Below, one piece after another: positions 8,272-20,091 of a stretch of 32,000 bases of DNA. Source of the DNA: Promethearchaeum syntrophicum (GTDB taxonomy: Archaea; Asgardarchaeota; Lokiarchaeia; Sigyniarchaeales; Promethearchaeaceae); assembly GCF_008000775.2 (NCBI RefSeq), contig NZ_CP042905.2, forward strand, positions 2,070,001-2,102,000, written 5' to 3'. Within the stretch, counting starts at the first letter, position 1. Every line of letters begins with the position of its first letter. The notes beneath the pieces were generated by a model. That model saw only the letters and a program-made list of their open reading frames with translations. It made no database searches and was not told the origin of the DNA. A program made the translations under genes and the position numbers.

Positions 8272-8691
8272 TTATTCTAAATATTTTATTACTAATTCCC
8301 TAAATTCTTTAATCTGCAAGGGTTTTGATATATAATCATTAAAACCTGAATTTAAAATTCGTTCTTTATCTCCTTTCATTGCAAATGAAGTTACAGCCAT
8401 AATTGGTGTTTTTTTATATTTTTCCAGCTTTCGAATTTCTTTGCAAATATCAATCCCGCTCATATCAGGTAGCTGAATATCTAAAATAATAACATCAATA
8501 TTGTTACTTGCTATTGATTGAAGCCCTTCTTTTCCGGTAATAGATGTTAATATATTTAAATTAGGAATAGTTCCTAATACTGCTTTAAATAATTCCATGT
8601 TTTTTTCATTGTCTTCCACAATGAATATTTGTTTTTCTTCTGTCATACTTCGTTCCTTCAATTCGAACAAAATTGCCATTATTTCAAACAA
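8272..8691 (-). CDS. Single-domain CheY-like response regulator receiver
   Basis: IFIVEDNEKN...VIILDIQLPDMSG...TPIMAVTSFAMKGD...DYISKPL gives the acidic pocket, phospho-acceptor Asp, and conserved T/S and K. The likely true start is the internal MTEEKQ at 8646. Confidence 0.9.
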   Translation of the reverse strand: MFEIMAILFELKERSMTEEKQIFIVEDNEKNMELFKAVLGTIPNLNILTSITGKEGLQSIASNNIDVIILDIQLPDMSGIDICKEIRKLEKYKKTPIMAVTSFAMKGDKERILNSGFNDYISKPLQIKEFRELVIKYLE

Positions 8692-8973
8692 TAACGAATT
8701 TATAATGTTCTTGATCGTAAAAATATATCTTTAGAATTATATACAATAATGTGAAATCTATTAAATTTTTTGAGAAACTTAAAAAATACTTTTCTATTGT
8801 AATAATTCAATACCACTTATTTATCATTTCAATGAAAAATAAAATTTTAATTAATTTTTTTGAAGTGTTATAAGAAATCGAATAATAATATAAGTAAACG
8901 GAACTATTTTTTAACTTGATTCCTTAAAAAGGATAAGTAAAAGAAAAACGCTAGTTAAAGAAAACGATCGAAA

Positions 8974-9354
8974 ATGAGAACCAAAAAAGTTTACATAGTT
9001 GAAGATAATCCACTAAATATTGAACTTTATTTAGCAATTCTTAACCAAATTGAAAATATAGAAGTTTTTGTAGAAAAACAAGGTGATAAAGGATTAAATC
9101 TTATTAAATTAGGAGATCCTGATTTATGCATATTAGATTACGATATTCCTGTTCTAAATGGAGTTAAAATCTGTAAAGAACTTAGAAAAATCGAAAAATT
9201 TCAAAAAATACCAATTATTGTAATATCTTCATCCCCTATTAAGGGAAATAAAGATGATATATTTCGAGAAGCTGGTTTTGATAAATGGTTCGAAAAACCT
9301 TTGAATGTTAAGGAATTTAAAAATAACATTACAAATTTGTTGTTTCAAAATTGA
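8974..9354 (+). CDS. Single-domain CheY-like receiver (divergent paralog), upstream of and co-directional with a Rag-like GTPase gene
   Basis: VYIVEDNPLN...LCILDYDIPVLNG...IPIIVISSSPIKGN...WFEKPL. This is the receiver fold signature but is clearly more divergent than the three other receivers in the window. Confidence 0.8.
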   Translation: MRTKKVYIVEDNPLNIELYLAILNQIENIEVFVEKQGDKGLNLIKLGDPDLCILDYDIPVLNGVKICKELRKIEKFQKIPIIVISSSPIKGNKDDIFREAGFDKWFEKPLNVKEFKNNITNLLFQN

Positions 9355-9574
9355 AATCCATGAAGAGCATGCAAATTTATAGTATCTATAATCAGAACAT
9401 TTTTAGAAGAGATTTCTTAAAATTTTTAGTTTTTCTACATGAATAATCCAAATGCCTAATAGAACTCTTAGATTACTTTTCAAAACCTCCTAATTTATAT
9501 ATATCAAAATTATTAGGTTACCAAATCGATCATTAGATATATCACCTAAACAAAGTAAAACATTAAGGATAATT

Positions 9575-11077
9575 ATGAGTAAAAAAATTGTTTTTACGGG
9601 ACCACCGAAAGTTGGGAAAACTACTCTTCGAAAAATCTTTTTTGAAGGCGAAAATCCATCAAAACTGTTAGAGTATTCCTTAACACCCACACATGGTCAA
9701 GAATCCATCCTCCTAAATTTAAAAGAGAAGGTGGGTGTTTTTGATTTAGCAGGTCAAGAAAATCAACGGTGGTATGAAACAGAAGCAAAATCAGTATTCT
9801 TTGATACACAAATTATTATTGTGGTGTTAGATAGTTCATCTCCTAAAGAAGAAATCGTGAAATTTACTAAAAAAGTATTAAAATTAAGAGATGAAATAAC
9901 GCCTTCTTCATTTGTTTATTTACTCCTCCATAAAATTGACTTAATCTCAAAAGATAAATTAAAAATAATAAAAGATAAGGTCAACGATGAGTTTCAGGAT
10001 GTGAATTTATTAGAAATCGCTTATACAAGTATTATGAAATATTCATTTTTACCAACTTTTACATTATTTACAGAGATATTAAAGTTAAGCTTAGGAATTA
10101 AAAAAGATGAAAATGAAAAATATAGTCTTAAATTTCTTGAATATGTAGTAAGTATATTAAATATTATCGATCAAAATGTGGTAATCCCAAAAGAAGATAT
10201 AAAGAGAGATTTGAAACTTCCTGATAAAATTTTCAATAATTTTATTGAATATTTAGAGAAAATGGAGTTTTTAGAAGCTTCAAAATTAAATAAAAAACCT
10301 GTGATATCATTAACTAAGGCTGGTAAAAATTATATTAATGAAATAGTAGGAAAATTCTCTATAGAATCCATACAGAATTTCAAAAACAATATAGAAGAAT
10401 CAAAATTTGAGGAAATTCCTTCGTTCTTAGGATTTTTAATTGCGGATAGGAATGGAAGAACCATCTCGGCTACTGAAGTATATGAAGGAGCTTTTGGTTT
10501 ATTTTTAAAGTATAATGATGAGGTAGAAAAAGGAAATGAACTGGATTTAATTCCTATGTTTATCAGTGCATTAGAAAAGTTTGCGGAAGAAATTAATATA
10601 ATGGATTTACCAGGCTTTAAATTAGAAGGTTCAAATCTCAAAATTCATACAATAAAATATGATATTTGCACACTCTGCCTCTTTATGAGAAATGATGTTA
10701 ATTTCAATTCTGTTAAAAAAGAAGTATTTGCCTGGTTTGATAATTTGATGGAAACCTATCAAGATAAATTAAAACAGAGTATTGAAAGTGGAAACATGGT
10801 TTATTCTAGTAGTCTGCATAGTGAAGCTAAGAAATGGTTAGAGCAAATGAACAAAAACTATGACGATTTGCTGATAAATTTAAAAATCTATAATTTTGAA
10901 CATGTAAAGAAACTGTATCAGAAATTAGATGAGCTTTATTTAAAAATTGATTTTAAATATTCAATGATTCTGGAAAAATTAAAAAAGTTGAAAATAAATT
11001 TGATGGAATCTGCAATGGATAATAATTTTCAAAGTTTTAAAGATATCGTAAAGAAAATAAAAGAATTAGATTCTTAA
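9575..11077 (+). CDS. Rag/Gtr1-like small GTPase fused to a putative winged-helix, a roadblock/LC7-like domain and a C-terminal coiled coil
   Basis: G1 GPPKVGKTT, G3 FDLAGQE and G4 variant HKID (the HKxD form typical of Rag/Gtr1). The wHTH-like part is PKEDIKRDLKLPDKIFNNFIEYLEKMEFLEAS..ISLTKAGKNY. The roadblock-like part is FLGFLIADRNGRTISATEV...LIPMFISALEKFAEEI...LEGSNLKIHTIKYDICTLCLFM. The tail is heptad-rich. Confidence 0.75.
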   Translation: MSKKIVFTGPPKVGKTTLRKIFFEGENPSKLLEYSLTPTHGQESILLNLKEKVGVFDLAGQENQRWYETEAKSVFFDTQIIIVVLDSSSPKEEIVKFTKKVLKLRDEITPSSFVYLLLHKIDLISKDKLKIIKDKVNDEFQDVNLLEIAYTSIMKYSFLPTFTLFTEILKLSLGIKKDENEKYSLKFLEYVVSILNIIDQNVVIPKEDIKRDLKLPDKIFNNFIEYLEKMEFLEASKLNKKPVISLTKAGKNYINEIVGKFSIESIQNFKNNIEESKFEEIPSFLGFLIADRNGRTISATEVYEGAFGLFLKYNDEVEKGNELDLIPMFISALEKFAEEINIMDLPGFKLEGSNLKIHTIKYDICTLCLFMRNDVNFNSVKKEVFAWFDNLMETYQDKLKQSIESGNMVYSSSLHSEAKKWLEQMNKNYDDLLINLKIYNFEHVKKLYQKLDELYLKIDFKYSMILEKLKKLKINLMESAMDNNFQSFKDIVKKIKELDS

Positions 11078-11182
11078 TTTTGTTTTACTATGATTCTTAA
11101 TTTATTAAGAAATTCTGATTCGATTTTTTATCAATTTAACTAGCATACAGAAAATTTTCTCCATTCATCTGAAAAACAAAAA

Positions 11183-12319
11183 TTAACGTTTTAAATAAAT
11201 CGACACAATATCTCCATCTTCTAAATTATGGTCTGTTTGTATAAATTTTTGCCCTGGATGTTTGGCAGATTTTCCCCAGACTAATGCATATCGGTAGTTA
11301 ATTAAGAACCTTTTGTGCAGTTTCAAGCAAAGCTTTTTAATATTATCTCCTTTATGAAGAATGATAGGTTCACTCATATCAACCTCTTTTTGAGGGGGTT
11401 TTAGGTAAACACGGATTAATTCCAGCTCTTGAAAAATTTGATGTCGTAATTTATCAATATTTTCTTTATTCAGAGCTGAAATTTTGACCCAATGATTGTG
11501 CCCGATTTTGTTTGTGATTTCTTCATCTTTTATTTTCTTTTTTGCTAAATCTTTTTTGTTTATAACTACAAATTCCTTTGTATAGATTCGATTTCCCATT
11601 ATATGGTCAATCAGCTGATCTGGAGTTACATGAGGTTCAGAAAAATATACACTTGCGTTGCTAAAACCCATTTCATTTAGAATTCCCTTTACTTCTTCCC
11701 GATCCATATCTTGATGTCCATTATATGTAAATCCAATTCCACCACGATTTGTCTTTGTTATCTGAATTCTGGGGGGTTTTTCATTTAAACGCATTCCTGC
11801 ATTAAAAAGTTCTTGTCTTATAGTTGTAAGGTGGGAAAATTCAATGGACCCATCTGGAAGAAAACAAATCAAATTTAAAATCAAATCAGCACTACGAACC
11901 GCACCGAGAATTTCTCTCCCTCTCCCTTTTCCACTTGCTGCTCCAAGAATAATACCAGGTAGATCGATCAGCTGTATTTTTGCTTCTTCTATATCCATCA
12001 TTCCAGGAATCGCTGTTAATGTGGTGAAATCATAAGATGCAACTTTTGAATCTGTATTTCCTCTTGTAAGAAGGTTAAGTAGAGAAGATTTCCCTACTGA
12101 TGGAAATCCAATAAACGCTACTTGGGAATCTCCCGTTTTCTTAACCCCAAATCCAGAACCTCCTCCTTTTTTGGAAGTTGCAATTTTGATGAGGTCATTT
12201 CGGAGCTTTGCAATTTGTGCTTTCGTATAATTTATTGCTTTCTGCGTAGCTTTATTTTTTTGAGTGCGACTAAGCCGTTCTTCAAAATCCCGAATTTTCT
12301 CTTCTATTTTTTCACTAAT
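11183..12319 (-). CDS. drg: DRG-family (developmentally regulated GTP-binding protein, Obg-like) GTPase with C-terminal TGS domain; proposed non-canonical ATT start
   Basis: The track ORF (11183-12001) begins at MMDIEEAKIQLIDLPG, which is the G3 motif. My translation shows the same frame stays open upstream to 12325. That stretch encodes ISEKIEEKIRDFEERLSRTQKNKATQKAINYTKAQIAKLRNDL...VAFIGFPSVGKSSLLNLLT, the DRG N-terminal helix plus the G1 P-loop. The TGS-like C-terminus is IRVYLKPP...GDIVSIYLKR. There is no ATG/GTG/TTG between the in-frame TGA (12326-12328) and 12001. Confidence 0.8.
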   Translation of the reverse strand: MSEKIEEKIRDFEERLSRTQKNKATQKAINYTKAQIAKLRNDLIKIATSKKGGGSGFGVKKTGDSQVAFIGFPSVGKSSLLNLLTRGNTDSKVASYDFTTLTAIPGMMDIEEAKIQLIDLPGIILGAASGKGRGREILGAVRSADLILNLICFLPDGSIEFSHLTTIRQELFNAGMRLNEKPPRIQITKTNRGGIGFTYNGHQDMDREEVKGILNEMGFSNASVYFSEPHVTPDQLIDHIMGNRIYTKEFVVINKKDLAKKKIKDEEITNKIGHNHWVKISALNKENIDKLRHQIFQELELIRVYLKPPQKEVDMSEPIILHKGDNIKKLCLKLHKRFLINYRYALVWGKSAKHPGQKFIQTDHNLEDGDIVSIYLKR

Positions 12320-12325
12320 TTTTTG

Positions 12326-12334
12326 TCACACTCC
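12326..12334 (-). promoter_or_regulatory. Shine-Dalgarno-like element GGAGTGTGA, 6 nt upstream of the proposed ATT start of the DRG gene
   Basis: The minus strand reads GGAGTGTGA-CAAAAA-ATT AGT GAA. The purine-rich element resembles the GGAGGTGA core complementary to the archaeal 16S 3' end. Confidence 0.35.
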
Positions 12335-12534
12335 AAATTTAAAACCAAGAAAGAAAATTGATTAAGAGCAAAAAATTTTTCGAAAAACAAAAATATCGTG
12401 ATAGCAGCAATGAAATTAGTGAATGAAACAAGGGAATATAATTAATTTATCATAAAGGTTACAGAATGAAAAATTAATTCTATGAAAAAAATTCGGTGGA
12501 TTGAATGTTATTTTTAGATTTTTAGAATATGAAT

Positions 12535-12930
12535 TTAAGATGTAATAGATGTTATTTCAATTTCTAATAATCTTTGAATTTTCTTTCTGAACTCGATTAT
12601 ATTTAATGGTTTTGATATATAATCACTAAATCCTGAATCTACTATTCTTTCTTTATCTCCTTTCATCGCAAATGAGGTTACAGCGATAATTGGTGTGCTC
12701 TTAAACTTGTCCATCTTCCGAATTTCTTCACAAATTTCTGTTCCATTAATTCCTGGAAGTTGAATATCTAGAAGAATAATATCCGGATCTTCGGATTTAA
12801 TTAATTCAAGGCCGTCTATTCCATTCTCCTTGGTTAAAATTTCTAGATTCGGGATCATTCCTAAAACGGCTTTGAATAACTCCAAATTTTTTTTATTATC
12901 TTCAACAATAATGATTTTTTTCAAATTCAT
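12535..12930 (-). CDS. Single-domain CheY-like response regulator receiver
   Basis: KIIIVEDNKKN...IILLDIQLPGING...TPIIAVTSFAMKGDKERIVDSGFSDYISKPL. It is a close paralog of the receivers at 8272 and 19696 and is transcribed divergently from the GTPase gene at 13182. Confidence 0.9.
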   Translation of the reverse strand: MNLKKIIIVEDNKKNLELFKAVLGMIPNLEILTKENGIDGLELIKSEDPDIILLDIQLPGINGTEICEEIRKMDKFKSTPIIAVTSFAMKGDKERIVDSGFSDYISKPLNIIEFRKKIQRLLEIEITSITS

Positions 12931-13181
12931 ATACTTCCCTAATAGAATTCTGTTTATTGTACTTGTATTAACATGATTATATTTATCATTAATTTTGGGA
13001 AATTTTCTAAAAAAAACTTATCTAAACATTAGATTTATTCTTGATTTTTTTCTCAATTCTATGATTAAATGTAATGTAAAAAGAAATTAAGGAAAATATG
13101 TTTTTAGCAAGTAATTACTATACATAATTTATATTTCATGTAATTTAATGTAAAAAAAAATAATTAAACGGTAATTAAAAA

Positions 13182-14471
13182 ATGCCCAAAGGAATCGTTC
13201 TAGTTGGATGGGATAATAAAATGGGATCTACAATTGAGGTGAAATTCCCAAAGGATTATCAAATCCAAAATAAAAAAATAACTCAGTATTTGGTAACTCT
13301 ACAAACTTTCGGAAGAAGTTCAAATATTCAAATTCGAGATAATGAGGATATAATTTTAATTTTTGGTTATCCGGTAAGAGAAGGGCCTGCAAATTATGAC
13401 TTTATTATTGTAATTCTGGATAGTTTAGAGGAATCCGAAATTCCAAAAATTCAAAGTAAACTAAATCTTGAAGGAGGAAATATTTTAAAAACTCCCAAAC
13501 CTAAAAGATCAAAATTATTCCTGGATTTTGCAGGAAATTTCATCAAACAGGAACAAAAGAAAATAGTTTTTATGGGATATCCGAATTCAGGGAAAACTAC
13601 AACAAAATTATTCTTTTTTGAGAAGATTCAGAGTGAGAAACTTTTAGAAACTACATTTACGCCCACAAAAGGAATTGAAACGGATCGGTATAGTTTAATT
13701 GATTCGAATATTGCATTATTTGATACTTCTGGCCAAGAAATTGAAAGATGGTTTAACATAGATGAAACTCCTTTAATTGGTTCTGACCTAACAATTTTCT
13801 TTATAACAGCAATGGATTGGAAACGAAACCCAGAGAAGGTAAAAAATGATTTAAATAGACTTATTCAACTCTCTGAAAAACTTGATGAGTCTGATCACGA
13901 TTTAGTTCTATTCTGCCATAAATTTGATGAAATTACTGAGAATATAGAAGAATTTAAAATAAGTCTTATAGATTTCACTCAAACGTTAGATATCTCTGTA
14001 TTTTTCACTTCAATTAAAGATACGGGGAATTTTGATATTTATATTGGTTATCAACTCATGTTGAGAAAATTCTCACCACTATTTGCTTTTATAAATAATT
14101 CACTCAATCCACTTATGAGCAGGTATCAACAAAGCGGAAATCTCCTATTTATTCTCGATTCTGATTTCACTCTAATCACAGATTTTACTCATAGCATTGA
14201 GGATTTTGATGTGGCGAACATCCAACAGTTTAAAAGTACTACAATCAAAATGATGAAAATTATTAATTTAGATGATAATAAATCTAGTGATTTCATTACT
14301 TTTACTTACGAATCAAGTGCTAAAATAGTCGTTTGTTTAAGAATATCTAAATTTAATCCCGATTTTTCTTATGTTATAATGCAAGCTGATTCATATCAAC
14401 TTGTGGATGAAATCTATAAGGAATATAATAAAATGAAAGAGAATTTTACGTGGGTAGAGCATAATAATTAA
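13182..14471 (+). CDS. Three-part small GTPase: N-terminal longin/uDENN-like domain, Rag/Gtr1-like G domain, C-terminal roadblock-like domain
   Basis: The N-terminal ~100 aa (GIVLVGWDNKMGSTIEVKFP...DFIIVILDSLEESEIPKIQ) have an alpha/beta regulatory-domain pattern. The G domain has G1 GYPNSGKTT, G3 FDTSGQE and G4 variant HKFD. The C-terminal part is GNLLFILDSDFTLITDF...KIVVCLRIS. Confidence 0.7.
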   Translation: MPKGIVLVGWDNKMGSTIEVKFPKDYQIQNKKITQYLVTLQTFGRSSNIQIRDNEDIILIFGYPVREGPANYDFIIVILDSLEESEIPKIQSKLNLEGGNILKTPKPKRSKLFLDFAGNFIKQEQKKIVFMGYPNSGKTTTKLFFFEKIQSEKLLETTFTPTKGIETDRYSLIDSNIALFDTSGQEIERWFNIDETPLIGSDLTIFFITAMDWKRNPEKVKNDLNRLIQLSEKLDESDHDLVLFCHKFDEITENIEEFKISLIDFTQTLDISVFFTSIKDTGNFDIYIGYQLMLRKFSPLFAFINNSLNPLMSRYQQSGNLLFILDSDFTLITDFTHSIEDFDVANIQQFKSTTIKMMKIINLDDNKSSDFITFTYESSAKIVVCLRISKFNPDFSYVIMQADSYQLVDEIYKEYNKMKENFTWVEHNN

Positions 14472-14481
14472 AATAACTCTC

Positions 14482-14513
14482 TTTTTTTTTTAAAAAAAAT
14501 TTTATAAAAAAAA
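14482..14513. terminator. Bidirectional oligo-T/oligo-A tract in the 45-bp gap between convergent GTPase genes
   Basis: A T10 run (14482-14491) is followed by two A8 runs, which read as T8 on the minus strand. Oligo-T tracts are the established archaeal termination signal. Confidence 0.5.
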
Positions 14514-14516
14514 GGT

Positions 14517-15668
14517 TTATTCAGTTAAATTTCTTAATTTAAACACTTTTCTCAGTTCTGACATTACATCATTTCTATTCGGTTTAACTTTTTGTTGCAC
14601 TTTTTTCTTTGGTGGGGGAGGAGGAGGTTGAACTATTTGTTTATTTGATGATTTCACTTCAATATTTTTTGTACTTGGAATTTTTCCTAGATTCGATCCT
14701 CCAATTATACCTTTTAATTCTTGAAATTGATTCATTATTGAACTATTTAACTTAATTACCATTTCTGAAAGAATTGAAACTTGTTCTTCTAAATTTTTTG
14801 CAATTTTATCTGGACCGAAAAATTGCTTAAAGGATTTTGCAAATTCGGGCTCATTTGCATAGAAATTATAAATACTCGATTGAATTAATTCAAAACTAAA
14901 TTTCTTCTCATTAAGCGATGTTGAGATTATTTCAGAGATCATTTCTAAATTAATTTGAAAATCTACTTCTTGACGTATATCAGGATCTGATTTATGTAAG
15001 AGTACTAATACATATGGATTTTCTTTGAAATAACTCACTATATCTAGAATTTTATCAAAATATTCTATTGATTCATCAAAACGTTCCGAATCTTGGATAT
15101 CTATAACATAGATAATTAAATCGATATGTAAGAAAAATTCTTCTGGATTTTTTAAATAATCCTGCCTGTGGAATTCTTGTCCACCGAAATCCCATATCGT
15201 TAAATTAAAATTTTCAACTTCAATTTTTTGAATGTCCACTCCTTTTGTAGGAGGAAGATTAGTTATATCGCCAAATTTTGTTTTTCCTTTTAAGCTTTCA
15301 AGCATGGATGTTTTTCCTGCGTTATTAAGACCCAAAACTATTATTTTTTGCTTGGATTTTTTTAAATAAAGTGATCTTTTTTTCCATGCTCTTGATAATA
15401 ATTCAGCTGTTAAAATCCATTTTTCGAATAGTTCTTCACTAATACTAGTTTCTTTTGCAATTTTTTTAATTTTTTCAGATTTTAATTTTACAAAATCTCT
15501 AATTTGGGTGATTTTGTATTTTTTAAGTTTCTCTCCATATTCATTCTTGCATTCTTTTAAAACGCTTGGATTCATATTCAAAATTTCTGAAAAAGAATTT
15601 GGTGTTTTTTCAACAACAAGAAATTTCTTACAAAAAATATCGATTATTTTTTCTTTATCTGTTGACAT
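14517..15668 (-). CDS. Arf/Rag-like small GTPase with N-terminal extension, C-terminal coiled coil, poly-proline tract and WH2-like tail
   Basis: G1 GLNNAGKTS (Arf-like GLDxAGKT), G3 WDFGGQE and G4 variant HKSD. The C-terminus is ...QPPPPPPKKKVQQKVKPNRNDVMSELRKVFKLRNLTE. Confidence 0.8.
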   Translation of the reverse strand: MSTDKEKIIDIFCKKFLVVEKTPNSFSEILNMNPSVLKECKNEYGEKLKKYKITQIRDFVKLKSEKIKKIAKETSISEELFEKWILTAELLSRAWKKRSLYLKKSKQKIIVLGLNNAGKTSMLESLKGKTKFGDITNLPPTKGVDIQKIEVENFNLTIWDFGGQEFHRQDYLKNPEEFFLHIDLIIYVIDIQDSERFDESIEYFDKILDIVSYFKENPYVLVLLHKSDPDIRQEVDFQINLEMISEIISTSLNEKKFSFELIQSSIYNFYANEPEFAKSFKQFFGPDKIAKNLEEQVSILSEMVIKLNSSIMNQFQELKGIIGGSNLGKIPSTKNIEVKSSNKQIVQPPPPPPKKKVQQKVKPNRNDVMSELRKVFKLRNLTE

Positions 15669-15746
15669 AATTTTAATGTTTTTTTCATTCCTAAAACTCT
15701 TCCTATCGAATTCTCAGTTAATAAATATAAAATCAGTGAAAACATT

Positions 15747-18700
15747 CTAAATTAATTTCTTGGGTAATGTAAATGAAAAGGATGAACCTTCACCCAATAC
15801 ACTGGTAAATGTGATATGTCCTCCGTGAAGTTCAATTAACTTTTTTGTCAACATCAACCCCAATCCAGTTCCTTCAATAGATTCCACATAATCTGATTCA
15901 ACTCTCTTAAATTCTTGAAAAATAATTCCAAAATCCTCTGGTGCAATCCCAATTCCAGTATCAATTATTTTAAATTTCCAATTCTTTTCATCTTCCATAA
16001 AATCTAATTTTATTCCGCCTTTTTCAGTATATTTGATAGCATTACTTAAGAGATTTAGAAGTATTTCTTTAAACCTTATCGGATCTGCATTAATAATTGT
16101 GCCTTTTTCAAACCCAACTAACTCAAAATTCAATCCTTTTTTTTTATAAAGTGGTTTTACTTCGATTTCAATTTGAGAAACCAAATTCAATAAATCAAAA
16201 TCTCTGTACTTTAATTCTACTTTTCCTGCTTCTATTTTTGAAATATCTAAAATATCATTTATTAGATTTAATAAGTGTTCTGCCGATGTTCTGACGTTAT
16301 TAAGATAATGATCTTGTTTTTCGTTCACATCTCCATAGAATTTCTCAATCAAAATATCTGTAAAGCCAATGATACTATTTAATGGAGTTCTTAGTTCATG
16401 AGACATTGATGCCATAAAATCAGATTTAAATTGGGAAGATTTAATAAGTTGATCTTGATATTGTTTTTGCTGCTCTAATGATTCAGTAACATCACGAGAA
16501 ATCGAGGAAATTCCAACAATATCTCCCTTTAAATCTAAAATTGGGGAAATTGTCACATTAACACTTAATACCTTTCCATCTTTTCTAAGACGTTTAGTTT
16601 CAAACAATTTGTAGGATTCACCTTGAACAACTTTTTCTATTAAGTTGGGAATCTCTTCCATGCGATCAGGTGGAATCAACATGCTTATTGATTTTTCTAA
16701 AACTTCCTCCAATGCATAACCATATATTCTTTCAGCACCCTTATTCCATGATTTAATCATTCCCTCTTTATCCATGCTTACAATCGAATCTGATGAAGTT
16801 CCAACAATACTTGCTAATCTCTTCGTTTCTAATTTATATTCTATACTGATTATTCCTAATTTAATTCGTGTTAAAATTTCTTTTAATAATCTTTTTTCTT
16901 CATCTAAAAATTCCTTATTAATTTCATAAACTACCTCAATTTTCAATGGAATATCATTAATTTTATCAGAAATGGTTAATTTCCATTCGGATTCTTTAAA
17001 ACTTGTTGTTTGGGCTTGATTTTCTCCATAAATTATTTTTACCATAGTTATTTCTGGATATTGCCATGATGAACGAATCAGAGGTAGAACTCCATAGAGC
17101 AATTCCTTGATGGTAATGTCTGGTACAACTAAAAGACTGGAAATTCCATATAAACATTTTAATCCTTTAATCCTGACTTGAAGCATTAATTCGGATTCCA
17201 AAATTTGTTTTTCTTTTTTTTTCCGGTCAGTAATATCTTCAAATATTTCTAAAAGTGCCGGTTTTCCATTGAAATTTTCAATTTTTGTGGAACTAATCTC
17301 AAAATCTCGTTCTTCGTCAAATTTTGACAAAAATAATTTGTCCTCAAATTTTAAAGATTTAATATTCTGACTGAGTGATTTGTTTCTCAGTGGACACATA
17401 TCATCACATGGTTGCTCTCTGCCTCTTAAAATTTTATAACATATCTTCCCGTCAAGAATTCCGTCATATATTTTAGAAGAGCTTCTATTATGGAATAAAA
17501 TTTCATAATCTTCAGATATTACAAAAACGGGATAATTTAGAGTATTTAATATAATATTTAATTGATTTTTTGAATTTTCCAGCTCCCTAGTCCTTAATTC
17601 TACCTTTTGATCTAAATCCAAATTTAAATTTCGTAATCTGAATTCTGTTTCCTTTAATTTATTCTCCCGTGATTTACTTTCAGTAATATTTCTGACAAAA
17701 ACAGCAATTTTATTCTCATCATAGAAAAACAATCTCGCCTCAAAAATTTCAATTATCTCATTTTGTTGTTTTAAAGGAAATTCAACTACCTGTGGTTTTT
17801 TTGTTTTAAATACTTCTAAAGATTTTTCTTCAATCAATTTTGAAATCTTATTTGGAAAACCAATAAAAAGATCTTTTCCCAATAAATTATCTAAAGGAAC
17901 GTGAAGTAAATTTTTATCTCCGTGAAATTCCAAGACATCTCCCTTTTTAGAGAGTAATAAAAATAAATCAGGAATAGCTTGAAAAATGGTTGTAAATTTT
18001 TTAAGTGAATTTCTTAAATTTTTCTCATTTTTTTTCTGAATCTTATAATAACGCATTTTTGCGATTCCTAAGGAGAGATTATTCACCATTTTTGATATTA
18101 ATTCCACATCATCTTCATCGAATGTGTTTTTATTTCCTGAATATATGCCTAACACACCAATTACAATATTCTCTATAATGATTGGGATTGAAATTGATGA
18201 TAGAAAACCTGATCCATCGAAAACAGTTTTCCAATTTTTAAATTTTTTTTCTGCACTTAAATCGTTAATAATATAATTTTTTCTTGTTCTTATCGCTGTT
18301 CCGCTAGGACTTTGATCTTTTACAGATTCGGACCATGTAAATTTCAATTTTTTTCCATCATATTTAGAATTATCAAAGATATTATATCCAGCTAAAGCAA
18401 CTGGTTTTATTGATTTTTCTTCATCATATTGGACTAACCCAATCCAACAAAATTGGTAATTTTTAAATTGAATAATCTCTTCACAAAATTCTTGAAACAT
18501 TCCCATTTCATTTTTTGCATTTGAAATTAGAAAGTTAGTTTGACCTTGAATAAAGGTTAATTTCTCAATCTTTCTCTGTCGCGTTATGTCAGTTCCTAAG
18601 CTAAGAACACCTTCAATATTCCCTTTTTTATTATATACATTAGAATTATGCCATCTAATGATTTTTTCTAATCCTTTTTTAGTTTGTACAGCATTTTCAA

Positions 18701-18932
18701 AATAATCTACTTCTTTTTCACCATTTATCACCTTATTAAAAACTCTCTCCATTTCTTCCCTTTTAGAATGAGGAATACAAGTTTTGAACCAATTTTTACC
18801 CAATATTTCATTTTCTCTATATCCAAGTATTTTGTTACCCTTTACGTTAATATAAAGTATTTTCCCTTTTCTATCTAATTGTAGAACTATCGCATCAATA
18901 ATGTTCAAATATTTTCTATCGTTTCCAATCAT
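15747..18932 (-). CDS. Cytoplasmic multi-sensor histidine kinase (PAS-GAF-PAS-PAS-uncharacterised module-PAS-HisKA-HATPase_c)
   Basis: 1061 aa with no TM segments. It has PAS-like blocks, a GAF-like block (FCWIGLVQYDE...IGVLGIYSG), H-box SHELRTPLNSIIGF, N-box LLSNAIKYT, DTGIGI and GTGLGLM. Confidence 0.9.
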   Translation of the reverse strand: MIGNDRKYLNIIDAIVLQLDRKGKILYINVKGNKILGYRENEILGKNWFKTCIPHSKREEMERVFNKVINGEKEVDYFENAVQTKKGLEKIIRWHNSNVYNKKGNIEGVLSLGTDITRQRKIEKLTFIQGQTNFLISNAKNEMGMFQEFCEEIIQFKNYQFCWIGLVQYDEEKSIKPVALAGYNIFDNSKYDGKKLKFTWSESVKDQSPSGTAIRTRKNYIINDLSAEKKFKNWKTVFDGSGFLSSISIPIIIENIVIGVLGIYSGNKNTFDEDDVELISKMVNNLSLGIAKMRYYKIQKKNEKNLRNSLKKFTTIFQAIPDLFLLLSKKGDVLEFHGDKNLLHVPLDNLLGKDLFIGFPNKISKLIEEKSLEVFKTKKPQVVEFPLKQQNEIIEIFEARLFFYDENKIAVFVRNITESKSRENKLKETEFRLRNLNLDLDQKVELRTRELENSKNQLNIILNTLNYPVFVISEDYEILFHNRSSSKIYDGILDGKICYKILRGREQPCDDMCPLRNKSLSQNIKSLKFEDKLFLSKFDEERDFEISSTKIENFNGKPALLEIFEDITDRKKKEKQILESELMLQVRIKGLKCLYGISSLLVVPDITIKELLYGVLPLIRSSWQYPEITMVKIIYGENQAQTTSFKESEWKLTISDKINDIPLKIEVVYEINKEFLDEEKRLLKEILTRIKLGIISIEYKLETKRLASIVGTSSDSIVSMDKEGMIKSWNKGAERIYGYALEEVLEKSISMLIPPDRMEEIPNLIEKVVQGESYKLFETKRLRKDGKVLSVNVTISPILDLKGDIVGISSISRDVTESLEQQKQYQDQLIKSSQFKSDFMASMSHELRTPLNSIIGFTDILIEKFYGDVNEKQDHYLNNVRTSAEHLLNLINDILDISKIEAGKVELKYRDFDLLNLVSQIEIEVKPLYKKKGLNFELVGFEKGTIINADPIRFKEILLNLLSNAIKYTEKGGIKLDFMEDEKNWKFKIIDTGIGIAPEDFGIIFQEFKRVESDYVESIEGTGLGLMLTKKLIELHGGHITFTSVLGEGSSFSFTLPKKLI

Positions 18933-18983
18933 AAGTTTGCTACCTTATCTAGTAGTTAAAAAAAGAAGTATATATCATATATA

Positions 18984-19616
18984 TTACTTCATGCCTTCTG
19001 GTGAAAACATATTATTTAACACATTTTCTATCTCTTTAGCGGATTCTCTCATCATTTTAATATAATTTAAAAAATCTCCTTCTGAAATTTCAGTTTTTTG
19101 TTCTATGATTAAATCACAAAATCCTAAAATCGTGTTAACTTCGCCTCTAATTTTAACATTAAAAGATTCTAAAGGCACTAAATATTCCTTATTCATAAAC
19201 ATTGAATGAATTTTAACAAAAAAATCCAAAAATGCAGCATTATCATCAGTTAAAATTCGTTTGGTTCCAATCTTTCGAAATAATTCTTCAATTTGCTGAA
19301 AAATAAATGTAGATATCACTGGTAATTCTGCATCTCTTAAAAATATTAAAGCATAAGATTGTTTTCCTCCTCTTGCACTTGCATCTTCCACTTCTATTTT
19401 GCAAACTTGAGAATAAAATTTCTTATAATCTAAATAAACATATTTATTAGTTGTATTCAACGAATCTCGAAGTAAATCTCTGATGAAATCTTCATCTTTA
19501 ATATCGATTGATGAATAAAGAGATGTAGGACCTAAGATCTGGTCATATTTTCCAATAATTAATAAAAATTGCTCTTTATCTAGCCATTTTTTGAAATTGC
19601 TGTATTTTTCCGACAT
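18984..19616 (-). CDS. Longin/roadblock-like domain protein with a C-terminal His-less DHp (HisKA-like) helix pair
   Basis: The N-terminal part is FLLIIGKYDQILGPTSLY...SYALIFLRDAELPVISTFIFQQIEELF. The C-terminal NVKIRGEVNTILGFCDLIIEQKTEISEGDFLNYIKMMRESAKEIENVLNNMF aligns by eye to MSHELRTPLNSIIGFTDILIEKFYGDVNEKQDHYLNNVRTSAEHLLNLINDIL of the adjacent kinase, with Val at the phospho-His position. Confidence 0.55.
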   Translation of the reverse strand: MSEKYSNFKKWLDKEQFLLIIGKYDQILGPTSLYSSIDIKDEDFIRDLLRDSLNTTNKYVYLDYKKFYSQVCKIEVEDASARGGKQSYALIFLRDAELPVISTFIFQQIEELFRKIGTKRILTDDNAAFLDFFVKIHSMFMNKEYLVPLESFNVKIRGEVNTILGFCDLIIEQKTEISEGDFLNYIKMMRESAKEIENVLNNMFSPEGMK

Positions 19617-19695
19617 TTTAACGCCATGAATTTTTTATTAAATAATTTAAGAAGAATATTTTTAAAAATAAAATTCTCCAAAATAGGAGATCCGT

Positions 19696-20091
19696 TCATA
19701 TCCTTAATAAGTTTTGAATTTTCTCTCTAAAATTTTTAATAAGTAATGGCTTTGATATATAATCATTAAAGCCAGATTCTAATATTCGTTCCTTATCTCC
19801 TTTCATAGCAAATGAAGTTACAGCAATAATAGGAGTTTTATTAAATTTTTTATCTTTTCGAAGTTGTTTACAAATATCTGTTCCACTTATATCGGGAAGT
19901 TGAATATCTAATAAAATTATATCTGGATTACTTGAATATATTAAATTAAGACCATCTCTGCCAGTAGCTGAGGTTAGAATTTCTAAATTTGGGATAGTCG
20001 CTAAAACTGCTACAAATAATTCCAGATTTTTTTCATTATCTTCGATGATATATATTTTCTTCTTCAAATTATTTCCTCCATTTTCATGCAC
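19696..20091 (-). CDS. Single-domain CheY-like response regulator receiver (first gene of a 4-gene co-directional array)
   Basis: KIYIIEDNEKN...IILLDIQLPDISG...TPIIAVTSFAMKGDKERILESGFNDYISKPL. An alternative TTG start sits after an internal GGAGGA (..AATGGAGGAAATAATTTG..). Confidence 0.9.
   Translation of the reverse strand: MHENGGNNLKKKIYIIEDNEKNLELFVAVLATIPNLEILTSATGRDGLNLIYSSNPDIILLDIQLPDISGTDICKQLRKDKKFNKTPIIAVTSFAMKGDKERILESGFNDYISKPLLIKNFREKIQNLLRI

Follow-up and report, generated by a model that had tools for sequence, protein, structure and literature searches.

A longin–Rag-like GTPase–roadblock protein of Promethearchaeum syntrophicum MK-D1 and its folliculin-like and two-component neighbours

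The gene at positions 13182-14471 (+) of a 32,000-nucleotide stretch of the genome of Promethearchaeum (Prometheoarchaeum) syntrophicum MK-D1, a cultured Asgard archaeon, encodes a protein of 429 residues that very probably joins an N-terminal longin domain, a Rag-type G domain and a C-terminal roadblock domain in a single chain. The stretch (contig NZ_CP042905.2, positions 2,070,001 to 2,102,000; G+C of about 28%) is called the window below, and the protein LGR, for longin–GTPase–roadblock. On balance, we favour the view that LGR is a Rag-like switch in which the longin is the non-catalytic half of a regulatory pair and the arginine finger comes from a partner. The three-domain layout itself is already known. 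Tran, Akil, Senju and Robinson described it for the same protein (Commun Biol 7:273, 2024; PMC10933270) when they modelled all 74 small GTPases of MK-D1 with AlphaFold2 (AF2). Their supplement lists it as 'WP_147663503.1-LGR', aligned beside RRAGA and RRAGC, together with further MK-D1 LGR paralogues, and it falls with these two proteins both in their tree, which is based on structure, and in their alignments. As far as we searched the literature, our motif analysis of LGR and the supercluster of Rag-like, longin and two-component genes around it are undescribed, and the same search found no biochemistry or experimental structure of any LGR protein. The picture drawn here from motifs and gene clusters is a testable model; its motif scores are weak, and it draws otherwise on synteny and on structures that are predicted.

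Domain architecture and relation to the Rag/Gtr family

The features of the gene are as follows, with the evidence for each domain.

13182-14471 (+), LGR gene (longin–Rag-like GTPase–roadblock), ATG start, 429 residues (open reading frame listing)
13182-13547 (+), N-terminal longin domain, residues 1-122 (AF2 and Foldseek)
13209-13229 (+), W10-D11-N-K-M-G15-S16, the WD-x3-G-[S/P] motif in the loop between strands 1 and 2 (family conservation)
13548-14075 (+), Rag/Gtr-type G domain, residues 123-298 (Pfam, family profiles against the PDB, motif conservation)
13575-13598 (+), G1, GYPNSGKT, residues 132-139
13659-13673 (+), switch I, TPTKG
13722-13739 (+), G3, DTSGQE, residues 181-186
13917-13928 (+), G4, HKFD, residues 246-249
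14001-14018 (+), G5, FFTSIK, with TSI at residues 276-278
14076-14468 (+), C-terminal roadblock domain, residues 299-429 (AF2 fold, profile alignment, Foldseek)

A preliminary description, made from the sequence alone, had proposed a fusion of a longin-like domain, a Rag-like G domain with an HKxD variant of G4, and a roadblock-like domain. The open reading frame and all the motifs that it quoted are present, as are the strings that it quoted for a second protein, encoded at 18984-19616 (-), and the fusion is borne out by the profile and structural evidence given below as well as by the published LGR label.

The protein is 100% identical to WP_147663503.1 / QEE16619.1 (GTPase domain-containing protein), encoded on the 4.32-Mb chromosome of MK-D1. 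Twenty-four further 90%-identity clusters of 423-468 residues, including Lokiarchaeum ossiferum NEF87_001696, align with it over their full length, down to 37% identity. The identical record and these relatives, aligned end to end, indicate that the reading frame did not arise by chance but belongs to a genuine, conserved gene. When a profile of only the N-terminal domain was run exhaustively against 1.84 billion representatives, it returned 44 clusters, mostly of 414-447 residues, and in most of them the domain occupied residues 1-122 with the same G motifs downstream; about 30 additional 50%-identity clusters from this search share the size and layout of LGR. All family members with an organism name are Promethearchaeota (Lokiarchaeal lineage). 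A scan for sigma-70 promoters and intrinsic terminators around the gene stayed at background level, these models not being applicable to archaea.

Only the middle of LGR was matched in Pfam. Gtr1_RagA reached 8.7e-8 over residues 127-334 (32.3 bits against a cut-off of 22), and Arf also exceeded its gathering cut-off (2e-7, 31.1 bits). In the extended family, Gtr1_RagA was matched by 30 of 34 members at E<=0.01 (best 2e-24) and Arf by 33 of 34. The names of close relatives vary in the source database as well (NCBI), where they are called 'Rab family GTPase' or 'signal recognition particle receptor subunit beta'. From these near-equal scores and from such names, LGR might be taken for an Arf-like GTPase with unrelated flanking domains.

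Searches of PDB sequences with family profiles argue strongly against this. A profile of 15 members found human RagA (5e-11) and then Gtr1, Arl6 and Gtr2, with an alignment that began at the P-loop and extended as far as RagA residue 272, deep in the C-terminal roadblock domain of RagA. An enlarged profile of 34 members, reaching about 20% identity, raised RagA to 1.7e-24 (89.8 bits, RagA 6-281, with residues ~190-281 belonging to the roadblock domain), followed by Gtr1, LokiRagO 8yl2 (1.7e-17), Gtr2 and RagC. The first 21 PDB sequences in this search were all Rag/Gtr proteins, and the best of the others were Arl3 (44.7 bits) and Arf1 (34.5 bits). The RagA score is thus double that of the best Arf-family protein, and its alignment continues through a roadblock domain that Arfs lack. 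The motifs follow RagA too: HKFD is paired with HKMD and FFTSIK with FRTSIW, and among the extended members that cover each region DxxGQ is found in 27/27 and the HKxD form of G4 in 22/26. JGI names extended members 'Ras-related GTP-binding protein A/B', a name given in JGI/IMG to the distant members P0158 and P0159 (cluster of P0050).

Predicted structures gave the same ranking. The full-length AF2 model of LGR (predicted local distance difference test, pLDDT, 72.4; predicted template modelling score, pTM, 0.54) drops to low confidence nowhere but near switch I, and its last 130 residues run helix-strand-strand-helix-strand-strand-strand-helix, as in a roadblock domain. In Foldseek searches of the PDB, the top 18 matches were RagA/RagC, Schizosaccharomyces pombe Gtr1, LokiRagO, Gtr1/Gtr2 and LokiRagM, with E-values down to 6e-10 and alignments of about 318 columns that span the G and roadblock domains, whereas single-domain Rab and Arf proteins reached only ~1e-5 to 1e-4 over about 185 columns, four to five orders of magnitude worse. 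The isolated C-terminal domain profile had no significant match in the PDB, and Robl_LC7 was not matched in the Pfam scan of LGR; the roadblock assignment is based on the continuous alignment with the C-terminal domains of Rags and on the predicted fold. Chance-level matches of the isolated N- and C-terminal domain profiles in the PDB and Pfam included uL23, a phage collar protein and CFTR.

The doubled score of RagA and the Foldseek ranking indicate that LGR is a Rag/Gtr-type GTPase including the roadblock domain. Judged by the ranking of profile scores and not by a tree, it is closer to Rag/Gtr proteins than to other small-GTPase families, and we consider an Arf-like identity with unrelated flanking domains very improbable. 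The active site is intact as read from its motifs, with G1 to G5 in place and the catalytic glutamine at residue 185.

The longin domain and a proposed source of the arginine finger

Residues 1-122 had no significant match in searches of Pfam and the PDB by sequence only; the best hit, Afi1, came from a single one of the 11 members searched, at E 0.083. The fold was recognised from structure. Modelled alone with 11 homologues (pLDDT 84.9, pTM 0.81), the domain has strands at 2-11 and 15-22, a helix at 30-42, strands at 48-53, 56-64 and 72-80, and helices at 81-103 and 106-121, and it has no N-terminal helix; this order, strand-strand-helix-strand-strand-strand-helix-helix, is the longin topology. 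The best Foldseek match in the PDB was the longin of the Lokiarchaeal roadblock-longin protein 8yqg (E 2.3e-4, template modelling (TM) score 0.65), followed by the Kluyveromyces lactis Lst4 longin 4zy8 (TM up to 0.68), GATOR1 chains, DENND1A, SMCR8-C9orf72 and the FLCN complex, with roadblock and PAS folds placed below the longins. The leading matches are thus longins with a regulatory role towards Rag or Arf GTPases, and the domain probably falls in the 'GAP-longin' structural class of folliculin, SMCR8, C9orf72 and NPRL. Foldseek on the AF2 models of the full-length protein and of the N-terminal domain, a check that the preliminary description had proposed, thus assigned the flanking domains to the longin and Rag-type roadblock folds.

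Counted over 38 extended-family representatives, conservation in the N-terminal domain is highest at W10 (38/38), D11 (37/38), G15 (36/38), P23 (38/38) and Y72 (36/38); the first four fall within the segment GIVLVGWDNKMGSTIEVKFP (residues 4-23), and Y72 opens the string YDFIIVILDS (residues 72-81). The W-D-x-x-x-G-[S/P] spacing is that of C9orf72, in which W33-D34 are essential and are followed by G38-P39 (PMC12290439, Traffic 2025, on longin GTPase-activating protein (GAP) complexes). According to the same paper, the GP motif precedes strand 2 and adjoins the arginine finger, and it occurs in SMCR8, FLCN and NPRL2 as well as C9orf72, but is missing from FNIP2, NPRL3 and non-GAP longins; the catalytic arginine fingers are FLCN R164, SMCR8 R147 and NPRL2 R78, and GP plus Arg is also found in one class of Asgard longins. 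The N-terminal domain profile of LGR aligns to C9orf72 28-52 with 5.5 bits, a score reached by 1 of 1000 shuffles. The human C9orf72 and FLCN sequences used here were accepted on their agreement with the published lengths and key residue numbers. By its motifs, the LGR longin is most like the subunit of a longin GAP pair that contacts the client without being catalytic.

Three proteins found with the longin, P0058, P0066 and P0067, carry a WD-motif longin at their N-terminus without a GTPase domain. The C-terminal parts of P0067 (211 residues) and P0066 (359 residues) resemble a winged helix-turn-helix, and that of P0058 (312 residues) is unrelated.

The preliminary description had also suggested that LGR could be a self-contained GTPase with its own regulator. 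The longin and roadblock domains of one chain or of a homodimer would then sit on their own G domain as a built-in GAP or guanine nucleotide exchange factor. Such a switch would suit the retention of all three modules across the whole family, and the introduction of PMC10933270 describes longin and roadblock dimers as classical small-GTPase platforms (MglB, Ragulator, TRAPP). Position 66, the equivalent of the FLCN-type arginine, is separated from the Tyr of strand 5 by the same six-residue step as FLCN R164 and is Arg (11/38) or Lys (11/38) in 22 of the 38 representatives. However, known longin GAPs rely on an invariant arginine finger (PMC12290439), and no longin arginine is positionally conserved in this family; residue 66 is even deleted in three close relatives of LGR, and R66 was rejected as an in-cis arginine finger for its poor conservation. 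The AF2 packing between domains is not confident either (pTM 0.54). The lack of a conserved finger argues against a built-in arginine-finger GAP, so that the self-contained switch is disfavoured and we hold it to be unlikely. Tran et al. noted that the MglA-type arginine is missing from these GTPases and argued that they need GAPs (PMC10933270). We lean slightly towards regulation of LGR in trans.

Alternatively, the longin may serve only for oligomerisation or localisation. LGR would then assemble with itself, longin to longin and roadblock to roadblock, and its longin would take no part in the nucleotide cycle. AF2 homodimers of longin-containing MK-D1 GTPases show typical roadblock or longin dimeric interactions (PMC10933270), the closest solved structure, 8yqg, is a dimeric Lokiarchaeal longin, and the solved Lokiarchaeal Rag-like GTPase 8yl2 is a homotetramer according to its entry title. 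Yet W10, D11, G15 and P23 are placed in the loop between strands 1 and 2, which in C9orf72, SMCR8, FLCN and NPRL2 lines the GTPase-binding catalytic pocket and not the dimer interface. A purely structural longin, which we rate as doubtful, would also leave unexplained the clustering of LGR with a gene, listed next, for a longin protein that has an arginine finger.

18984-19616 (-), folliculin-type longin protein of 210 residues with a DHp-like segment (residues 149-204) that lacks the histidine (Pfam Folliculin, motifs)

This protein barely reaches the cut-off of Pfam Folliculin, which was matched at E<=1 by 16 of 16 aligned members of its family (best 5.6e-5). The family comprises 88 clusters of proteins of about 210 residues, and its organism-named members are all Lokiarchaeal. 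It has invariant K-Y-D-x-x-L-G-P (Y24, D25, G29, P30) and A81-R82-G83 motifs, and the family profile places R82 on FLCN R164 with a score that none of 1000 shuffles reached; in the PDB, the same profile did not reach FLCN. Residues 149-204 align with the DHp/H-box region of the adjacent kinase encoded at 15747 (BLASTP, E 2e-4). HisKA was weakly matched by 7 of 16 family members, and the position of the phospho-acceptor histidine is occupied by L, V, I or M in all 16 and never by His. At two other loci (L009 and L010), the folliculin-like gene lies 14-53 nucleotides from PAS kinases on the same strand. The protein may represent a subunit of a longin GAP with a docking site for a kinase.

The preliminary description had seen a common pattern in the N-termini of LGR and of this protein. 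The likeness holds for the shared [W/Y]-D-x3-G-[S/P] motif and the strand-5 Tyr; it does not extend to significant homology, since pairwise BLASTP found no match and an hhalign comparison of the LGR longin with the family was not significant. That non-significant alignment still placed R66 on the family arginine and Y72 on the family tyrosine.

Under the reading that we favour, LGR would alternate between GTP- and GDP-bound states and, like the Rags, form oligomers by way of its roadblock domain. Its C9orf72/FNIP/NPRL3-like longin would offer a docking surface for a G domain and a second longin, and the arginine finger would be supplied in trans, the best candidate for its source being the folliculin-like protein with its invariant GP motif and Arg82. 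From the DHp segment without histidine and the adjoining PAS kinases and receivers, the GTPase cycle would probably be gated by two-component signalling. That the folliculin-like protein is a specific partner of LGR is a tentative proposal, which we would put on the unlikely side. A still bolder version would see here a forerunner of the folliculin/GATOR-Rag axis, in which the longins of the two proteins form a heterodimeric GAP, its target being the Rag-like G domain of LGR or the neighbouring GXLX and Arf-like GTPases; the DHp-like segment of the folliculin-like protein would dock on the adjacent PAS kinase, whose state would gate GTP hydrolysis. We regard this as improbable.

Gene neighbourhood and conservation of the cluster

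The genes around LGR include the following.

9575-11077 (+), paralogous Rag-like GTPase of 500 residues, GXLX (Pfam Gtr1_RagA, 1.2e-14)
11183-12325 (-), DRG-type GTPase, listed from the Met at 12001, with the frame open upstream to 12325
12535-12930 (-), stand-alone CheY-like receiver, divergent from LGR (Pfam Response_reg, 2.5e-25)
14517-15668 (-), Arf-like GTPase of 383 residues with an N-terminal extension, convergent with LGR (Pfam Arf, 8.3e-24)
15747-18932 (-), PAS-GAF histidine kinase of 1061 residues (open reading frame; orthologue at locus L005 59% identical, with PAS/GAF_2/HisKA on record)
19696-20091 (-), receiver heading the same-strand run receiver/folliculin-like/kinase/Arf-like (Pfam Response_reg, 4.8e-23; L005 orthologue 79% identical)
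8272, 8974, 12535 and 19696, the four stand-alone receivers of the neighbourhood
6179, 15747 and 23833, the three PAS histidine kinases of the neighbourhood

LGR and the folliculin-like gene lie at most 5 kb apart in the window and at loci L003, L004, L005 and L009, even where LGR identity falls to 26-37%, and with the order rearranged. At L004 and L005 (LGR 68-75% identical), their company consists of orthologues of GXLX, the kinase, the Arf-like GTPase and the divergently transcribed receiver, again in a different order. In five pairs of LGR and folliculin-like clusters the longest contigs are equal in size (7612, 8630, 19243, 9999 and 66462 bp), which suggests that the two genes share contigs. 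Locus L009 has a kinase, a folliculin-like gene, a G-plus-helix-turn-helix protein, a 435-residue LGR (profile E 4e-110, 26% identical to that of the window), an Arf-like orthologue, two GXLX genes and a receiver, and L008 and L010 repeat these themes; all three loci were reached from distant folliculin-like genes. The supercluster (window 8272-20091, L004, L005, L008, L009 and L010) is kept at 26-55% protein identity with rearranged order, its content being PAS histidine kinases, stand-alone receivers, a folliculin-like protein, LGR, one or two GXLX proteins and an N-terminally extended Arf-like GTPase.

At L003, which holds the deepest core LGR (37% identical), a remote folliculin-like homologue stands immediately and divergently upstream (hhalign E 3.4e-5, RGG retained), its 'GKYDHKLGP' segment lying in a shifted frame of an indel-rich contig. 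On this contig (ENA contig_71653), several genes are split: Ras into 108+54 residues, Gtr1_RagA into 223+80 residues, and the folliculin-like gene by a frameshift. These splits suggest an indel-prone assembly, and the gene calls of L003 need care.

The individual neighbours recur to different extents. The 12535 receiver has an orthologue in the same position at L004 and L005 (70-71% identity), and a divergent receiver is also found at L006, which keeps a PAS-GAF kinase too. GXLX orthologues co-cluster at L004, L005, L008 and L009, and Arf-like orthologues are present at L005, L008, L009 and L010. The G domain of the window GXLX is 33% identical to that of LGR (E 4e-15). It had been proposed that LGR might heterodimerise with this 9575 protein through their roadblock domains. 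Such a dimer is unlikely, because the 9575 protein, listed as 'WP_147663498.1-GXLX' in the supplement of PMC10933270, is a G-X-longin-X protein without a roadblock domain. No roadblock-bearing paralogue adjoins LGR in the window.

Several observations weigh against the proposed regulation of LGR by a partner longin. The hhalign comparison of the LGR longin with the folliculin-like family gave a probability of 0.2% and an E-value of 0.28. Position 16 is mostly Ser (23/38; Pro 8/38, other residues 7/38), so that most members keep just the first half of the GP motif, and the matches to C9orf72 and FLCN amount to a few bits, against human sequences checked by length and key residue numbers. The pTM of the full-length model yields no reliable geometry between domains, and the oligomeric state, nucleotide binding and GAP dependence of LGR are properties that we infer. 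No folliculin-like gene lies within 8-10 kb of LGR at L001 and L007 (Lokiarchaeum ossiferum and a relative) or at L006, and L. ossiferum is absent from the list of homologues of the 18984 protein. The family of that protein (88 clusters) outnumbers the core LGR family (25 clusters), and its real client could be the Arf-like GTPase, which is in a same-strand run with it. Finally, some co-location of LGR and folliculin-like genes is expected by chance, because Lokiarchaeal genomes are rich in both classes, and the linkage described here refers to the loci named above.

At L001 (7214-7915, +) and L007 (9227-9925, +), a conserved protein of 232-233 residues is encoded 75-86 nucleotides upstream of LGR on the same strand, in place of the two-component genes found at other loci. 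It was considered as a folliculin-like candidate and rejected; weak matches to Frag1/DUF998 suggest a membrane protein. Two other loci encode Rag-like G domains of 288-298 residues with a C-terminal segment resembling a winged-helix DNA-binding domain ('...HLKRLSNLGFIKF...'), at L009 8659-9525 (+) and L008 3733-4629 (+), the one at L009 directly downstream of the folliculin-like gene.

The last 40 residues of the Arf-like GTPase end in 'QPPPPPPKKK...RNDVMSELRKVFKLRNLTE', and its orthologues (L005, L008_415) have retained both a polyproline run and, after it, '[VL]MSEL[RK][KD][VI]F', with a divergent linker. From its letters, this tail resembles a profilin-binding polyproline stretch plus a WH2-like motif (an Asgard WH2 has been reported as 'LKDV'); the Pfam scan of the protein returned no WH2 match. 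A preprint describes the co-immunoprecipitation of an Arf GTPase with Lokiactin in L. ossiferum.

The stretch upstream of the listed start of the DRG-type GTPase encodes a canonical DRG N-terminus and the P-loop GFPSVGKSS, with no in-frame ATG, GTG or TTG and only ATT or ATA. Either translation of this gene begins at a non-canonical codon, or the sequence contains an error close to the A-runs at ~12320.

Comparison with known systems

Rag GTPases and their longin and roadblock regulators (Ragulator, GATOR1, FLCN-FNIP) form a eukaryotic nutrient-sensing switch, the origin of which has been traced to Asgard archaea. Eukaryotic Rags are obligate heterodimers on Ragulator/EGO, upstream of TORC1; we know of no Ragulator/EGO or TORC1 in archaea, and no gene for either was identified among the window proteins. 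The Rag/Gtr proteins (RagA/B, RagC/D, Gtr1 and Gtr2; PF04670) share with LGR the order of G domain and C-terminal roadblock domain, HKxD, TSI, the switch II insertion and the catalytic Gln, but they have no N-terminal longin and are only ~15-18% identical to LGR in Foldseek alignments. Vargova et al. placed the eukaryotic Rags inside an Asgard RagGtr clade.

The solved Lokiarchaeal proteins LokiRagO (8yl2, homotetramer) and LokiRagM (8zla/9m28, monomer) have the same G and roadblock core as LGR, 8yl2 reaching E 3e-9 in Foldseek besides its profile score; they are proteins of ~290-340 residues and were matched to LGR only over these two domains. Our literature search found no paper describing the two structures. 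The LGR, GR, LG and GXLX classes of Tran et al. (PMC10933270) come from the same phylum and include this exact protein as LGR. What LGR adds is the joining of three module types in one archaeal chain, as already published, in an organism that can be cultured.

Bacterial systems offer a parallel and, beside the eukaryotic heterodimeric longin GAPs, the precedents for the proposed mechanism. Actinobacterial conservons are reported to bring a small GTPase together with a roadblock protein and a kinase-like protein. The MglA-MglB(-RomR) polarity module and the conservons CvnA-D, with a small GTPase, a roadblock protein and nearby receiver or kinase-like proteins, parallel the clustering of LGR with receivers and PAS kinases. 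Unlike LGR, they have separate roadblock proteins, an MglA-type GTPase with an intrinsic arginine, and no longin.

The signal recognition particle receptor is a further case in which an Arf-related GTPase, SR-beta, is bound by a longin-fold domain, the SRX domain of SR-alpha. Pfam SRPRB was weakly matched by 8 of 34 LGR-family members. In contrast to LGR, that receptor has its longin on a separate chain, lacks a roadblock domain and serves in protein targeting.

The longin GAP complexes C9orf72-SMCR8, FLCN-FNIP (Lst7-Lst4) and GATOR1 NPRL2-NPRL3 have in common with LGR the longin fold and, in C9orf72, the WD/G spacing, while their catalytic subunits combine the GP motif and the arginine finger, as does the neighbouring folliculin-like protein. 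Unlike the LGR longin, the eukaryotic GAP longins are separate proteins with DENN domains and are not known to be fused to their client GTPase. A WD loop without an arginine finger in LGR, together with a conserved gene cluster, bears on whether the regulation of Rag-like GTPases by longin GAPs predates the eukaryotes.

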